The translations under genes and the position numbers were made by a program. A stretch of 64,000 bases of DNA from NCBI GenBank assembly GCA_016201505.1, contig JACQCQ010000013.1, positions 80,830 to 144,829 of the forward strand. The letters run 5' to 3'. Origin of the DNA: Candidatus Sungiibacteriota bacterium (GTDB taxonomy: Bacteria; Patescibacteriota; Minisyncoccia; Sungbacterales; JACQCQ01). The first letter of the stretch is position 1. Each line of letters opens with the position of its first letter. This document shows positions 24,753 through 30,624 of the stretch, in pieces. The notes below the pieces were generated by a model. The model worked only from the letters and a program-made list of their open reading frames with translations, ran no database searches and was not told the origin of the DNA.

Positions 24753-25075
24753 CTTTTGTGTTGCTCAAAAAATTTCCCGCCTTCTCCGCCAGCTGGCAGA
24801 TACGGAAGGGCGCAGCAACTGTTTTATCCCTGAATGAATTCCAACTGTTCCGACTTTGGTCTTCCGAAGCTCCGTGAGGAGCGCAGGAGACCGCGCTGTA
24901 ATGTCCCCATTACAACGACTAGTCTCGGTGTATCGTGTTTCAGCCGTCCGAAGCTCTTGCGAGCGTAGGAGACTTCCGAGACCAAACACGTCTTTGGCTC
25001 GCCGTAGCTCCGTGAGGAGCGTAGACGGCTTTCATTCTCCAGGATGAGATAAGGAGGCGAGGCGCTTGCAGTACT

Positions 25076-26412
25076 TCTAAACGCACCTCGCATAAGGATC
25101 AGGCTTTCGCCTGCTAGATTTCGATCTCGGGCAATCTCCACGCCGCAGGCAAGGTGCACCTCGCCAAAAGCACGTCTCCGCTGCAGCGGAGCAAGACGAC
25201 CCGAGCTCTGTTATCCCGAACATCGGTACGATTTTTTTTTGCGATGCAGATACCGAGGTAGCGGAGGAAGCAGACGCCCAGTAGAGGATCGGGCGAAGGC
25301 ACTACCTACTAGCTAACCCGATCATACGTGATGTCCACCCCCGCGCTTCTCATCACCTTGTCCAGTGATACTCCGCAAGCGCCACGGGATTTCCTGCATC
25401 GCAAACTGAATTTCTATTTTTCCTTATCTCATCCTGGAGTTTTCGCCGCGCCAAAATTTTTATAAATAAAAACTTAGGCGGGCGTCCGACCTTCTAGGAT
25501 CACTGTTCAATCAGTTTGCTAGTTTTCTAGTTGACTAGTTAACTAGTAGGTCGCTAAGCGACCGGAACTGATGAACTGACAGATTCCTAAAAAGAATATG
25601 TTCCATCGACAGCTTCCGCTACCGATGCCTTGTTCATGTTCTCCCTATGTCGCCATAAGGCATGGACTATATCATCACCCTTTGTTGCAATGTCTTGATT
25701 TTTCTCGGATGCCAACTTCCGATAATCTTCAAGAAGTTTTCTTGAGATTTTTTCGAAATAAACATTCGGAAATAATCTGGATCTATGTGGAAACTTGGAT
25801 TATGGATTTTCCCCGATTGGATTCCAAAACTTATCAGCATTTGTTTAAGTTTCTCCAGTTTGATGCGATCATTCTGCACCAGTTGAATGTAAAACCTTGC
25901 GGATGGACTTCTTGGAATTCCTCCCTCGGCATCAAAGAATCCTCTTAAATACGCTATTTTTTCCTCAGCTGAATTTAACCGCTTAGGATCGAATTTTGTA
26001 TCTAAGAATTTTGCTCTTGTTTCCAATACATACACTTTACGATTTCTGCCTTCGCGATATATCCAGGAGGTATTATCCGTTAGCGCTAGGCAAGATTTTA
26101 GTACTGATAACCAATCAGTACCTAGCTGCGCAAACCGGTGTCTTTGGTTATACCGATTGAAGGTGCCATCGTGAAGCGCACCGAGTAAGTATGCTCGGCA
26201 TTCTGCAACAGAAGGGGCTTGGCGTGTAGTCTCTGAGGCGCCTCCGACGTTACGTCGGAGTTGCCTGCTGATTGTCTGCGCTTTTCGCATTATCACTTCT
26301 AGAACTATTTTAGCTCTATAAGTAGCAAAAAGATACTCAGGTTTTCCAGCATATAGCCAAGTTTTTATGTGAGAATTACTCCTCACAAGTCGCAACGGAC
26401 GCAGTCTGCGCC
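25076..26412 (-). mobile_element. About 1.3-kb intron-like insertion near the 16S 3' end (E. coli position about 1506-1520) encoding a LAGLIDADG homing endonuclease.
   Basis: 16S exon sequence (positions about 1400-1505) occupies 26396-26497 and the terminal about 22 nt occupy 25051-25072. The intervening 1.3 kb has no 16S similarity and carries the LAGLIDADG ORF. Confidence 0.6.
25667..26395 (-). CDS. Double-motif LAGLIDADG homing endonuclease (intron-encoded). The track ORF begins with a TTG; the start is uncertain.
   Basis: Two LAGLIDADG-like motifs: LLGALHDGTF and YLRGFFDAEGGI. Length 242 aa. Confidence 0.8.
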   Translation of the reverse strand: MRLVRSNSHIKTWLYAGKPEYLFATYRAKIVLEVIMRKAQTISRQLRRNVGGASETTRQAPSVAECRAYLLGALHDGTFNRYNQRHRFAQLGTDWLSVLKSCLALTDNTSWIYREGRNRKVYVLETRAKFLDTKFDPKRLNSAEEKIAYLRGFFDAEGGIPRSPSARFYIQLVQNDRIKLEKLKQMLISFGIQSGKIHNPSFHIDPDYFRMFISKKSQENFLKIIGSWHPRKIKTLQQRVMI

Positions 26413-26497
26413 TACGACTTCGTCTTTGTCACCGATCCTACCGTGGGCCACCATAAGTGGACTTCGGGTATTACCAGCTCCCCTGACGTGACGGGCG

Positions 26498-27232
26498 GTA
26501 TTAAGATCACTTCTGTGTCTTACACCACTGGGCGAACGGTTTTCCCGTACCCTAGCGGTTTCTTATATCGCTTTCGCGATATAGATTCGTCCCTTCCCGA
26601 GCACATATTTTTGGAGTCTATTGACGAAATTTATCAATAGGTATATAAATTGTATACGAGGAGGTGAAGGATTATGTTGGGTATCGCGGTTCCACCGATC
26701 CCTGCAAACGCGGGTGTCAGTAGCGATCCGGAAGGACTGCTCGCGCTCCTTCTTCTGATGTTCGTCGTTGTTCCGTCAATCATCGTCATTTTCGGCGGCG
26801 CGATCATGGCGAACGTCGAAGACTGAGATCAGCGGACGGCTTTCACCCCCCACAGCGGCCTCCAGGAGGTCGCTTTCAATTTCTCCAAAAATATGTGCTC
26901 GGTACTATGGATTCTGCTGACTTCTCAATAAGCATCAAGATAAAATTGCTTTTATCCTTTACCTTTCGGACTTAATAAGATCTCCTTCGGTCACCGAATA
27001 TACCATTCTCTCACATCTCGATACTCCGTATATAGCGTAAAATTTGTGCAGATGACTTCTCCATGTACTCGAAGGATCGTCGATCTACGCTACCTATTAG
27101 CGAGTATTCAAGCTATAAGACATATACTTTCGCCCTTCATCCTGAGGATCACTCCTCGAAGGACTGCGATTTCATTTCGCGACTTCTGCAAATCGTGGTG
27201 GGATTTAAACCCACTGGCATACTCGGCTGCAA
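26498..27232 (-). other. About 735-nt insertion in 16S at the conserved 1400 region, between GACGGGCGGT and TGTACAAG.
   Basis: Universal 1392 primer-site sequence is split: ...GACGGGCGGT at 26485-26494 and ...GTACAAAGCTCGAGAACGTATTCACC at 27235-27262. Confidence 0.6.
26674..26826 (+). CDS. Candidate 50-aa hydrophobic peptide with a strong Shine-Dalgarno, encoded inside the 16S insertion (antisense to the rRNA).
   Basis: AGGAGGTG is 5 nt upstream of the ATG. Translation MLGIAVPPIPANAGVSSDPEGLLALLLLMFVVVPSIIVIFGGAIMANVED has one predicted TM helix. Confidence 0.3.
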   Translation: MLGIAVPPIPANAGVSSDPEGLLALLLLMFVVVPSIIVIFGGAIMANVED

Positions 27233-27708
27233 AGCACCCGAGTACAAAGCTCGAGAACGTATTCACCGCGGCATAGCTGATCCGCGATTACTAGCGATTC
27301 CATCTTCAAGGAGTCGAGTTGCAGACTCCTATCTGAACTGGGGCGCACTTTGATGGGATTAGCTCCGCCTTGCGGCTTGGCAACCCATTGTATGCGCCAT
27401 TGTAGCACGTGTGTAGCCCAGGGTATCAGAGGGCCATGCTGACCTCGCGTCATCCCCTCCTTCCTCTCCCGAAAAGGAAGCAGTCTCTCCTGACACATAT
27501 AACAGAAGACAAGGGTTGCGTTCGTTAACCCACTTAAGGGAACAGTTCAAACCACGAACTGACGAGGGCCATGCAGCACCTGTGATTGCCGTCTTGTGAA
27601 CACACCGCGGTTTCTCGCGGTTTTTGCAATCATTTCAAACCCTGGTGAGGTTCCTCGGTTGTCATCGAATTGAACCACATGCTCCACCGCTTGTGCGAGC
27701 TCCCGTCT

Positions 27709-27740
<32 letters not shown>

Positions 27741-27838
27741 TCCCAGGCGGCAGATTTAACGCGTTAGCTGCGCCACTCCGAGGGTCGATACTCGAAATAG
27801 CTAATCTGCATCGTTTAGGGCGTGGACTACTGGGGTAT

Positions 27839-28920
27839 CTACAATTTTGTTGCGACAAAATTGGAATTTCTAAATCCGAATTTCTAATTTCTAAACAAAT
27901 CCGAAATCTCAAATTTCCAAATTGCGGACGAGACATTTCTGCTCGTCTCTCCGTATCGCTACGGAGATCGGACTGTATCATGACGGAAAGTATTACTGGC
28001 GCGGGTTTCGCTTTCGCTCACCCGCGCCGGGACTTCCGCCCTCGGCGTGCAGTCTCTGAGGGTTACGAAAGAGAGATCGGCGCTGTTTCTACATGCCGAT
28101 GGCCGAAACCGGGCCCGTCGAGGCTATCTCCGTAGCTTTCCTTGACGATGCGCTCGACGCGTACCACATTACCCATATCTTGAGCGATGGCGCGAGCTAC
28201 ATTGTCACCTTGAGCTTCGAACTCTACGACTGCCCAATATTTCATAGCTTCTCCTTTTCGTCCTTCCCTGCTGGTTGTCCGTTGACCGATCCGCGTTTAG
28301 CGGATACAGGTCGCACCGGATGCTTTTTTACCACTACTTTACATCGAACTTGCTGACTTCCTTCCGCATTCCTTCAAGGACCCTGCGAATCTCCGGCGAA
28401 TTGCCGTACTTCGCGAGGTACTTGTCGATCAGCTCGAGAAACCCGTTCTGCATGGCCTCGCGGGCCATTTGAGTGAACAAGCTCATTGTTTTTTTCCTTT
28501 CTGTGGTAGCACCGGATACACCGGATGTTCCAGCATATAGCTCCGCCGTCGCCTCACGGCTATGGCGGATCCCAACTTCACCATCATATTTTTCAATGGT
28601 GCGTCGGGACAAGTTTTCCAGGCAGTAGAAATTCGACTCGCTTCACAGCTGGCCGCAGAGAGGCCGGTCGAATTTCTACTGCCTGGTTTTTCCTTTTGAC
28701 GCGTTACTTCGCGTCCTAAGGGGACCATGCTCACGGTACCCCTACCGCCTCACTCTCGTTCGCTGTATCAACAGCGCCCTCAAGCGAGTCACATGTATGC
28801 ACAGAGAAATTTTTTCGAAACTCAAGGGAGGGATCCCGTCGTCGGAACGACAAATCCCTATGGGGAGAGTTGTAACATGCTCCTCCCTTGGTGATGAAAA
28901 AATTTCTCTGTGCAAAACAT
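27839..28920 (-). other. About 1.1-kb insertion in 16S after the 785-805 site. It contains small ORFs (28063..28245 and 28334..28612, minus strand) and a hairpin repeat element.
   Basis: 16S blocks on either side are contiguous in normal 16S (GGACTACTGGGGTATCTA at 27820-27838 and CCCATTCGCTCCCCACGCTTTCG at about 28925). The intervening sequence has no rRNA similarity. Confidence 0.55.
28613..28686. repeat. Hairpin element with 21-bp perfect terminal inverted repeats CCAGGCAGTAGAAATTCGAC...GTCGAATTTCTACTGCCTGG (family member 1).
   Basis: Perfect inverted repeat with a 28-nt interior. The terminal repeats match the element at 29205-29332. Confidence 0.6.
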
Positions 28921-29204
28921 GCGCGAGCGCTTTCGATCCCATTCGCTCCCCACGCTTTCGTCTGTGAACGTCAGGACAAGGCCAGCAACATGCCTTCGCC
29001 TTTGGTATTCCCTATGATATCAACGGATTTCACCCCTACACCATAAGTTCTAGTTGCCTCTCCTTGCCTCTAGTCGTGCCGTTTCGAATGCGGCCTACGA
29101 GTTAAGCCCGTAGATTTAACACCCGACTAACACGACCGTCTGGAGACCCTTTACGCCCAATAAATCCGGATAACGCTTGAAGCCTTCGTATTACCGCGGC
29201 TGCT

Positions 29205-29332
29205 GGCCAGGTAGTAGAAGTTCGACTGCGCGCGAGCGCAAATTATTTTCGAACATTTAATTTTCAGAGCCATGACAGATAGTGCTCCCAACTACAGAAA
29301 TCTTCATTTCATAGTCGAACTTTCACTACCTG
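29205..29332. repeat. 128-bp hairpin intervening element inserted in the 16S 530-loop region. Terminal repeats CCAGGTAGTAGAAGTTCGACTG / CAGTCGAACTTTCACTACCTGG. Family member 2 (IVS/MITE-like).
   Basis: The insertion splits the universally conserved GCTGCTGGCAC (519 site) into GCTGCTGGC | element | CTGGCAC, with a CTGGC direct repeat. The 22-bp terminal inverted repeats are near-identical to those of the 28613 element. Confidence 0.65.
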
Positions 29333-29344
29333 GCTGGCACGAAA

Positions 29345-29995
29345 TTCTACCGCCAATTTGGACTATATCATCACCCCGATGTTCATCGGGGGTCCCGCGT
29401 GTAGTCTCTGAGGGCTCTCTGCTATAAGTTCGATAGACTAGTCTATCGAACTTATAGAAACAGGTTGCCTGCTGATTGTTTCGTTGCGCGTCTTTGCAGT
29501 TTGCAAAACATTTCCGCGGACACAACGAAGTGTTCCAGTCCCGCAAGCCTCCCCACCGCAATACACTGATGTATTGTAGTGGCATGACTCACAGGATTCC
29601 CGAATCCATCTTTTCTTACGGCCAATAGGGCCGCGGGATTGCGATTTGTAACTACTCCGCCTTCGCTAAAAGCTTCGGCGGACAAGTCGTTACACTCGCA
29701 GACAAATCGGGAACATATAGCGAGATTTTCTTATGACGTATTACTACGCCAACTTCGCACCAAGTTTTTCTAACTTCACGAAGTTTGCAGCTTCTTATTC
29801 ATCTGGTACGGTCAGTCGTGCCTCGCTCTAGCGAACCACTCTCAATTTTAAATTTCCAATTTCTAATTTTCAATGAATGTCCTAATGTCTCAATTTCCAA
29901 AGGTTTGGGGTATTGAATCATTAAGAATTGACTGAAAATTGCAAAATTGATCATTGCAAATTGTGTGCCTCACAAAAGTGAGACACGACTTCTTC
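29345..29995 (-). other. About 540 extra nt in the 16S region between E. coli positions about 400 and 515. It contains the operator type 2 palindrome and sequence blocks shared with the LAGLIDADG intron.
   Basis: Blocks GCGTGTAGTCTCTGAGGG (29396-29413) and GTTGCCTGCTGATTGT (29464-29479) also occur at 26222-26238 and 26261-26276 within the LAGLIDADG ORF region. Conserved 16S resumes near 29995 (CTTTACAGACCGAAGTCCTTCTTCCTGCACGCGGCG). Confidence 0.5.
29422..29457. promoter_or_regulatory. Operator type 2, copy d: CTATAAGTTCGATAGACT|AGTCTATCGAACTTATAG, 36-bp perfect palindrome, located inside the 16S insertion.
   Basis: Identical 36/36 to the copy at 35243-35278. Confidence 0.55.
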
Positions 29996-30237
29996 CCAGA
30001 TAAAAGCAGTTTACAGACCGAAGTCCTTCTTCCTGCACGCGGCGTCGCTCGATCAGGCTTTCGCCCATTGTCGAATATTCTCGACTGCAGCCACCCGTAG
30101 GTGTATGAACCGTATCTCAGTTTCATCGTTGGGGATCACGCTCTCACGCCCCCTACCCGTCATAGCCAAGGTGCGCCATTACCACACCTTCTAGCTGATA
30201 GGACCAAGGCTCCTCCCCGAGCGCTCTTGCGAGCTTT

Positions 30238-30296
30238 ACCCCGCCTAAATTTTTGAGCTTTTTCATACTTTCAAAAAGCTCAAAAATTTAGGCGGG
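30238..30296. repeat. 25-bp perfect-stem hairpin expansion in the 16S V1-V2 region.
   Basis: CCCCGCCTAAATTTTTGAGCTTTTT-catactttc-AAAAAGCTCAAAAATTTAGGCGGGG. Confidence 0.5.
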
Positions 30297-30624
30297 GACC
30301 ATTGAGTATTAGCCAATCTTTCGGCTGGTTATTCTCATCTCGGGGGTAGATTCCAAGGTATTACTGAACTCGTTCGCCGCTAACTGGCAAATTGCGCGTA
30401 GCTAATGGAAAATAGTATTGCTACTATAAGCCATCCGCCAATTGCTATAAGCCAATTCGCACGACTTGCATGCCCTATCCACGCCGCCAGCGTTCATCCT
30501 GGACCAGGATCAAATCCTCTAATAGATCAGTTAGTTTTTCAGTTTACTAGTTGCCTAGTTCACATATTGCTAACTGCCGAGAACAAGAGGAAGAAAGAAA
30601 CGAATTTTTAGAAAACTCGCGAAA

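Follow-up and report, generated by a model that had tools for sequence, protein, structure and literature searches.

How does a 16S rRNA gene tolerate a long hairpin in its invariant 530 loop, and where does such a hairpin come from? The question is raised by a 64,000-nt stretch of contig JACQCQ010000013.1 (positions 80,830 to 144,829; hereafter the window), whose interrupted 16S gene contains two hairpin elements, e1 and e2. Since the window belongs to a Candidatus Sungbacteria metagenome-assembled genome (MAG), the host is a member of the candidate phyla radiation (CPR, Patescibacteria), bacteria with tiny, gene-dense genomes and rRNA genes known for unexplained insertions. We propose that e1 and e2 are copies of a nuclease-linked hairpin family of the CPR, and that they survive in the 16S gene because group I introns remove both from the RNA. 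Judged from sequence comparison, this account as a whole has a probability of about 0.6.

The hairpin elements and their family

Both hairpins lie within a few bases of where an earlier note on this DNA had placed them (Table 1). They have 20-nt terminal inverted repeats in common (CCAGGYAGTRRAARTTCGAC), hereafter called arms. The note rightly described the repeats as shared and near-perfect and the interiors as unrelated; its lengths (21–22 nt for the repeats, 28 and 84 nt for the interiors) are corrected here to 20, 29 and 87 nt. With up to 3 mismatches, the arm motif CCAGGYAGTAGAARTTCGAC occurs at four sites in the 64 kb, 28618-28637 and 29207-29226 on the plus strand and 28667-28686 and 29314-29333 on the minus strand; matches appeared in 0 of 100 shuffles. 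No further arm pair was found in the window at up to 5 mismatches. The arms of e2 show the AG/GA swap typical of the family. On the plus strand, its left arm leads into a GC mini-hairpin (TGCGCGCGAGCGCA). A GC-rich mini-hairpin (GGCC..GGCC) also adjoins one arm of e1. When the two interiors were compared by blastn with each other and with all family loci collected, nothing matched past the arms. The predicted RNA stems are stable relative to shuffled sequence, at -45.4 kcal/mol (z -7.7) for e1 and -54.4 kcal/mol (z -5.4) for e2. An Rfam match of e1 to the plant microRNA family MIR6459 was rejected as a generic hairpin match (20–23 bits against a cut-off of 100).

In the 16S sense, e2 splits GUG-CCAG^CAGCC and duplicates CCAG (518-521). 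The direct repeat does resemble a target-site duplication, as the note had said, but it consists of the 4 nt CTGG rather than CTGGC, the fifth C being derived from the element on one side. The insertion of e2 in the 530 loop is confirmed. Element e1 is located outside the 16S exon, ~250 nt within a 1,094-nt insertion between U788 and U789.

Table 1 Features of the interrupted 16S rRNA gene, in window coordinates.
Feature	Position	Strand	Length	Remarks
16S rRNA gene, interrupted	25600..30525	minus		host Candidatus Sungbacteria MAG (CPR/Patescibacteria)
S1506 group I intron	26413 to 25635	minus		carries a LAGLIDADG_3 ORF
Group II-like intron, ~position 1400	~27239 to 26500	minus		Rfam D1-D4 match at 26884-26960
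S788 group I-like intron	27842..28935	minus	1,094 nt	exon ..AAUGGGAU (U788 = 28936), resumes UAGAUACCCC (27841)
e1, short class	28618..28686		69 nt	arms CCAGGCAGTAGAAATTCGAC / GTCGAATTTCTACTGCCTGG, 20/20 complementary; interior 29 nt
e1 direct repeat TTTT, left copy	28614..28617
e1 direct repeat TTTT, right copy	28687..28690			target-site duplication
e2, mid class	29207..29333		127 nt	arms CCAGGTAGTAGAAGTTCGAC / GTCGAACTTTCACTACCTGG, 18/20 complementary; interior 87 nt
CTGG duplication of e2 (16S sense CCAG)	29203..29206			E. coli 518-521; 16S alignment resumes at CGGUAAUACG
CTGG/CCAG duplication of e2, second copy	29334..29337
Proposed working omegaG	29208	minus		penultimate e2 base, then G(29207)CCAGCAGCC, as after the 3' splice site of relatives
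S516 group I intron core	29339..29777	minus		5' splice site after U516 (29778), set by P1

A search of one genome per species with a degenerate 18-mer of the arm gave at least 120 loci (~0.85 Mb). Inverted arm matches with up to 3 mismatches were counted as paired copies; the counts below are among the matches listed and include both window copies. Such pairs, with the arms 40–330 nt apart, are present in many Patescibacteria MAGs and total at least 74 in public genomes, e1 and e2 plus 72 elsewhere. The loci are mostly labelled Parcubacteria, Portnoy-, Yanofsky-, Doudna- or Paceibacteria, Saccharibacteria or Patescibacteria, and one Parcubacteria MAG (LBYG01) has at least nine loci with copies. 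Single arm matches outside the CPR were set aside, being at about chance level (~280 expected for the pattern in 596 Gb). The copies fall into size classes of 58–80, 112–157 and 314–327 nt, with 71 of 74 between 58 and 157 nt. Their 4-nt flanks are identical in 47 of 74 cases and differ by one mismatch in 13 more, compared with 1/73 in a shifted-flank control. The duplicated sequence is TATG/CATA in 32 of these 47; the rest are CCGA, CAAG, TTGA, TGGA, CGTA, TTTT and CCAG. Arm complementarity begins and ends precisely at positions 1 and 20, and two-sided arm changes occur at positions 1, 6, 14, 17 and 20. At arm positions 10-11, 70 of the 74 copies retain an A.C plus G.T mismatch, e1 being among the four exceptions. 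At two loci (L043 and L098) copies are nested: the inner element sits in the arm of the outer one, flanked by a TTTT duplication, and its removal restores the outer arm, which indicates insertion at the DNA level.

On this evidence e1 and e2 very probably belong to a dispersed family of CPR/Patescibacteria that resembles miniature inverted-repeat transposable elements (MITEs), with 20-bp inverted repeats and a 4-bp duplication. The suggestion of a MITE in the earlier note is thereby borne out by the terminal inverted repeats, the fixed 4-bp duplication, the dispersed copies and the nested insertions. The two window copies also have the general features of MITEs: they are shorter than ~600 bp, lack coding capacity, have terminal repeats and a fixed duplication, and occur in multiple copies. 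Full-text literature searches turned up no account of repeats of this kind in Patescibacteria, and the family, which is common in these ultra-small bacteria, is apparently undescribed.

Two structural details of the family were observed along the way. The nest in the Portnoybacteria MAG is triple (L098 914-1113, L043 2388-2457): the inner copy occupies the right arm of the outer element, with the TTTT duplication, and the outer element also holds a diverged copy, which has CCCCGTAG../..CTACGGGG as its arms and CCAG on both flanks, the tetranucleotide also found at e2. Most copies of 112–157 nt (L003, L006, L041, L052, L053, L065, L085 and others) have a GC-rich mini-hairpin of 6–8 bp directly after one arm; an A-run comes next, and a YCTGGCA motif lies deeper in the interior. 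The mini-hairpin, which is absent from the coding copies described below, may be a recognition site of the nuclease.

Copies normally lie in intergenic DNA, most commonly exactly on an NATG start codon and in the sense orientation. An ORF of 59–822 aa begins at the ATG of the 3' duplication in 26 copies, with one consistent orientation of the element. Among the copies away from start codons, none interrupts a long ORF, which was tested as a sign of self-excision at the RNA level; nothing suggests that the family can excise itself from RNA. The proposal that the element targets rRNA did not hold. Of the 74 paired copies, only e1 and e2 lie in an rRNA gene and 72 lie outside, and an Rfam scan of 58 other copy-bearing loci found no copy within an rRNA gene, so the family does not target rRNA and favours start codons instead. 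One copy (L031) is located 1.4 kb upstream of a 23S gene. At L127 (4153-4225), a variant copy with arms CCCGG../..CCGGG and a TATG duplication precedes a CPR 16S gene by ~390 nt. It is bordered on one side by a sigma-70-like promoter (TTGACA-N18-TATAAT) and on the other by the ATG that starts a lysine-rich ORF of 18 codons; here the frame that leads from the ATG into the arm is open until a TAG abutting the right arm.

The longest members carry a gene. In the copies of 314–327 bp (L088, L102, L112) and at a fourth locus seen in many samples (L131-L150), a single ORF of 88–91 aa fills the interior and matches the Pfam GIY-YIG family (PF01541) with E-values of 1e-15 to 1e-17, with no other substantial domain. 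A protein search returned 956 clusters of relatives, the best 120 of which are 73–100% identical to the query; every one of these 120 with an organism name is from Patescibacteria. About 45 of the best 120 start with MPGSENS(T/I)AI, the translation of the flanking ATG and the left arm CCAGGTAGTGAAAATTCGAC, indicating that the arm abuts the gene and that a host-side ATG is in frame with the nuclease at many independent loci. On the other side, the next gene always starts 20 nt past the nuclease stop codon, a distance that corresponds to the right arm plus T. The closest solved relatives of the family profile are UPF0213 (5.5e-7) and then the structure-specific nuclease SLX1 (3e-3); the protein belongs to a structure-selective branch of the GIY-YIG superfamily. 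Arm pairs of 400–3,500 bp, as expected of a transposase-bearing parent, were sought in the 120 loci listed without success. As the longest pair there is 327 bp, no transposase-sized partner is seen, and the partner with the same ends as the ORF-less copies encodes the GIY-YIG nuclease only. The nuclease is probably the mobilising enzyme of the family.

Proposed removal of e2 and e1 from the 16S RNA

The 530 loop contains a group I intron at S516, directly adjacent to e2. Rfam detects it as RF00028 (29339-29787) with 26.5–27.1 bits (E ~4e-4). Its internal guide sequence (IGS) GCGAAGUU (29758 to 29751) pairs with the exon AACUUCGU, with a U.G pair at U516, and the sequence UUGGU (29763 to 29759) can form P10 with GCCAG. 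A metagenome scan yielded eight related S516 introns with cores ~90% identical to that of the window; all end ..G|GCCAGCAGCC, and none has an e2-like hairpin. Exon and IGS covary among the relatives (ACUACGU/GCGUAGU, ACUCCGU/GCGGAGU, ACUCUGU/GCAGAGU), the window pair being ACUUCGU/GCGAAGU. An exact 22-mer of the S516 3' end recovered no near relative from metagenome contigs.

The terminal omegaG, present as G in the eight relatives, is replaced in the window by U (29339) at the corresponding position of the Rfam alignment. Starting from this U, the sequence continues with GCCAG, e2 and then CCAGCAGCC, so that e2 begins 5 nt past the canonical end of the intron. Every element of the family ends in ..CCUGG, and together with the CCAG duplication this end recreates ..CCUG|G-CCAG-CAGCC on the far side of e2. 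We propose that e2 inserted in the exon CCAG (518-521), one base 3' of the S516 splice site, and that the 3' splice site has come to lie between 29208 and 29207, where e2 ends. This shifted site is inferred from the U at 29339 and from the next G before GCCAG, which lies at the e2 end. Intron and e2 would then splice together as a 570-nt unit (29777 to 29208), restoring GUGCCAGCAGCCGCGG and an intact 530 loop; the CTGG copy at 29203-29206 would be the real exon, and the copy at 29334-29337 would now be intronic. Co-splicing of e2 through the shifted 3' splice site is, in our estimate, slightly better than an even bet. The earlier view that an insertion at this position must be removed from the RNA is supported. 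The S516-e2 pairing looks like a one-off accident rather than a mobile chimera, given the eight related introns without e2.

Within the same intron, a loopless perfect 18-bp palindrome at 29422-29457 (CTATAAGTTCGATAGACT|AGTCTATCGAACTTATAG) corresponds to P8 in the Rfam alignment. The string AAGTTCGA is found both there and in the arms of the elements; the palindrome may be a relic.

For e1, the location inside the S788 insertion is certain. The exon ends were taken from 16S alignments. The insertion starts after U and ends in G, and it has 21-, 16- and 14-nt core motifs in common with both Rfam-detected group I introns of the gene. The proposed IGS is a GUCCCG hexamer (28610 to 28605), which can base-pair with UGGGAU at the end of the exon, the first and last pairs being U.G. 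A hairpin and then the shared GCUAUAUGCUGGAA motif come next, an order also seen in the S1506 intron. Since e1 ends 7 nt before this hexamer, it would occupy the P1 loop, a peripheral position. Provided that the insertion splices, e1 would leave the RNA with it, giving the ligated junction GGGAU|UAGAUACC, and removal of e1 together with its host insertion is very probable.

The P1 loop of S788 contains a second hairpin (28798-28914), with 19-nt perfect arms TGCACAGAGAAATTTTTTC and a 79-nt interior; these arms are unrelated to the e1/e2 family. The minus strand of the insertion also has two ORFs, 28063-28245 (60 aa) and 28334-28486 (50 aa), neither with a Pfam match.

Proposed mobilisation and rival explanations

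The UPF0213/SLX1-like nuclease would recognise the arm hairpin or a cruciform and mobilise the ORF-less copies in trans. The arms would pair in single-stranded DNA or in a cruciform, cuts would fall at the foot of the stem and, with a 4-nt stagger, at the target, and host repair or ligation would finish the move. On start codons, the duplication would hand an ATG back to the host gene, while the upstream ATG, which often reads in frame through the left arm, can drive the nuclease. A nuclease-only element would in this way borrow a host ribosome-binding site and ATG for its own translation. The gene downstream may be translated across the hairpin, which would bring the ribosome-binding site close to the second AUG, or else by translational coupling. 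A bolder version is that the family constitutes a nuclease-only class of transposon: ~320 bp long, with a 90-aa SLX1/UPF0213-like GIY-YIG protein as its sole product, insertion at start codons and ORF-less offshoots across CPR phyla, one of which has given a group I intron in the 530 loop a new 3' splice site. We offer this version tentatively, with odds somewhat short of even.

A number of observations weigh against the proposed account. To our knowledge, no GIY-YIG protein catalyses transposition, and the interiors of the ORF-less copies are not derived from the nuclease gene. A tblastn search with the GIY-YIG proteins of the family found no such gene in the 64-kb window, and no family copy was found in the ~6 kb of adjoining contig covered by Logan contigs. 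Three copy-bearing loci are labelled Gammaproteobacteria, which may be mislabelling, and several just 'bacterium'. On the RNA side, the Rfam score of the S516 intron falls short of the gathering threshold. The S788 insertion lacks an Rfam match of its own, so that its intron class is inferred. In the predicted fold, the proposed omegaG (29208) takes part in a base pair at the stem foot of e2. Just ahead of e2, 13 nt (29338-29350, AAUUUCGUGCCAG) mimic the ligated exon junction AACUUCGU|GCCAG, where the eight related introns have a short hairpin and then GG. Splicing at U29339 itself, which would leave e2 in the rRNA, is formally conceivable, since a few rare group I introns lack omegaG, among them one of Coxiella, according to a citation in PMC11270868.

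The fate of e2 in the RNA would be the same if the family consisted of ordinary MITEs moved by a transposase (of the DDE type, for instance) encoded elsewhere, with the GIY-YIG gene as a passenger or secondary invader. A 4-bp duplication with 20-bp inverted repeats is typical of DDE insertion sequences, the pattern that the family shows. The gap in precedent for GIY-YIG enzymes and the ORF-less interiors unrelated to the nuclease gene speak for the same idea. It is weakened by the 327-bp ceiling on arm pairs in the 120 loci listed, and by the close fit between the nuclease ORF and the arms: the start can run in frame through the left arm, the N-terminus is arm-encoded in ~45 of the best 120 of 956 relatives, and the stop abuts the right arm. 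A hidden transposase is unlikely on balance, yet it is a live rival to mobilisation by the nuclease. The earlier note also considered that the hairpins might represent a family of intervening sequences (IVSs) excised by RNase III. Their stems would then be cut out with the ends left unjoined; for e2 this would break the 16S rRNA within the 530 loop, and for e1 it would yield a processed intron. Long, near-perfect stems such as those of e1 and e2 are of the kind cut by RNase III, and many short insertions in CPR 23S genes have been ascribed to RNase III IVS sites (PMC11270868). The family, however, is a DNA repeat scattered over sites that are mostly not in rRNA, it shows 4-bp duplications and nesting, and the conserved A.C/G.T mismatch breaks its stem. 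Cleavage would leave stubs in the universally conserved 530 loop, and e1 is already within a larger insertion. The missing omegaG of S516 would be left unexplained, whereas co-splicing explains its loss. With transposon-like repeats and a simpler exit through group I introns, we consider excision by RNase III distinctly unlikely.

It is very unlikely that the 16S gene is simply defective or redundant, with e2 retained in the transcript and another rRNA copy in use, or the lineage at a dead end. Such a state could be read from a gene with at least four introns, several expansions and a 3' end without an obvious anti-Shine-Dalgarno sequence. Its exon segments, however, score 538 and 521 bits against the bacterial small-subunit (SSU) model with conserved cores intact, the window holds no second 16S copy, and multiple introns are normal in CPR 16S genes (PMC11270868). 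We give hardly any credence to native peripheral helices that were inherited with two related group I introns, an idea suggested by the core motifs that the three group I introns of the gene have in common. Among the matches listed, the same arms occur at 72 loci that are neither intron nor rRNA, and the eight related S516 introns are without the hairpin. In addition, e1 and e2 occupy non-homologous positions, a P1 loop and a 3' terminus, and both are flanked by 4-bp repeats.

Known systems and the host gene

The Correia elements of Neisseria are ORF-less MITEs with terminal repeats and a short duplication, which are dispersed, mostly intergenic and co-transcribed with their neighbours, and form long hairpins. 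The CPR family is likewise short, ORF-less, dispersed and hairpin-forming, with terminal repeats. It differs in its duplication, which is 4 bp and mostly TATG on start codons instead of TA, and in its coding relative, which carries a 90-aa GIY-YIG nuclease instead of a transposase. Its interiors are unrelated between copies, and its stem keeps the central A.C/G.T mismatch.

For the nuclease itself, the nearest system described is Ssn, a 94-aa GIY-YIG protein that cuts single-stranded DNA beside hairpin repeats flanking its own gene, a layout that its authors compared to an insertion sequence (IS; Chenal et al. 2025, PMC11893778). The CPR nuclease is also a single-domain protein, of 88–91 aa, and the repeat that flanks it is also scattered through the genome; many ORF-less copies carry a small GC-rich hairpin beside the conserved arm end, which recalls the NTS. 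In contrast to Ssn, the CPR gene is located between the two arms of one 20-bp inverted repeat rather than between self-contained hairpins, and the 4-bp duplications and nested insertions show transposition. The SRM pattern HGTCWY..YYVSBRH..WNVSBRG..RNCYNB has no match in e1, e2 or the whole window, and the arm start GTCGAA has G where the pattern requires W.

The arrangement proposed for S516 and e2 resembles an IStron, in which a group I intron is fused at its 3' end to an IS and spliced as one unit (PMC4227781). In our model, too, a group I intron has a transposon joined to its 3' end and uses a 3' splice site on the far side of the transposon, and both are removed jointly. The passenger e2, however, is a 127-nt ORF-less element and not an IS200/IS605 element, and the pair is found in an rRNA gene, at a position classical for introns. 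As in rRNA IVSs, extra hairpins in an rRNA gene would be absent from the mature rRNA; whereas those IVSs occur at variable-helix tips, with no genome-wide repeats or duplications, e2 is in the invariant 530 loop. Membership of the RNase III-type IVSs, which are confined to rRNA and to variable helix tips, was rejected on the positions of e2 and of 72 of the 74 copies.

Four further candidates were dropped. IS200/IS605 ends are ruled out by the 4-bp duplication and by GIY-YIG as the only ORF, and an intron homing endonuclease of the I-TevI type by the single domain and the many different insertion sites. The NCBIfam model for group I intron endonucleases gives 22 bits for the family nuclease against a cut-off of 56. 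A 4-bp duplication also speaks against attC sites, for which there are no arrays or matching enzymes, and against archaeal bulge-helix-bulge introns, as the stem foot is without that geometry.

Tsurumaki et al. (2024, PMC11270868) described 30 GIY-YIG ORFs in scattered non-intron insertions of CPR rRNA genes. That study left many insertions of <200 bp unclassified, and it mentions neither inverted repeats nor duplications, nor any copies located elsewhere than in rRNA genes. Compared by description alone, the GIY-YIG-bearing ones probably belong to the family described here. Our results suggest that some of the short unclassified rRNA insertions of the CPR, and probably the scattered GIY-YIG ones too, are a transposon-like family whose ends and duplication are both defined. 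The family combines a MITE- or IS-like element with an Ssn-like nuclease, and at e2 it would add an IStron-like co-splicing arrangement. The family ties Ssn-type mini-nucleases to real mobility with a striking preference for start codons, and it is a very small candidate system for hairpin-directed DNA cutting. The e2 locus is a concrete example, open to testing, of how the invariant 530 loop could accommodate an insertion: the ribozyme next to it can splice the insertion out. Such insertions explain why genes of this kind are missed or mis-assembled in 16S surveys and annotation.

The host gene is multiply interrupted, as is usual for rRNA genes of the CPR (PMC11270868). Rfam matches to the bacterial SSU model are found on the minus strand at 28823-30525 (537.9 bits) and 27198-27923 (521 bits), with a group I intron match at 25643-26423 and a group II fragment at 26884-26960. 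There are at least four introns: group I at S516, group I-like at S788, group II-like near 1400 and group I at S1506. Helix 17 contains an AT-rich insertion of ~160 nt (~29800-29985), and the 5' domain a perfect 25-bp hairpin at 30239-30297 (CCCCGCCTAAATTTTTGAGCTTTTT, 9-nt loop, complement) without a flanking direct repeat. Past the S1506 intron, the 16S 3' end reads ..GAUGGAACAUAUUCUUUUU, without the CCUCC anti-Shine-Dalgarno. The sequence CCUCCUUA occurs ~550 nt beyond this end (~25050), within a perfect 19-bp long-range inverted repeat (25037-25055 / 25421-25439) that could be a processing stem or a further insertion near the 16S 3' end.

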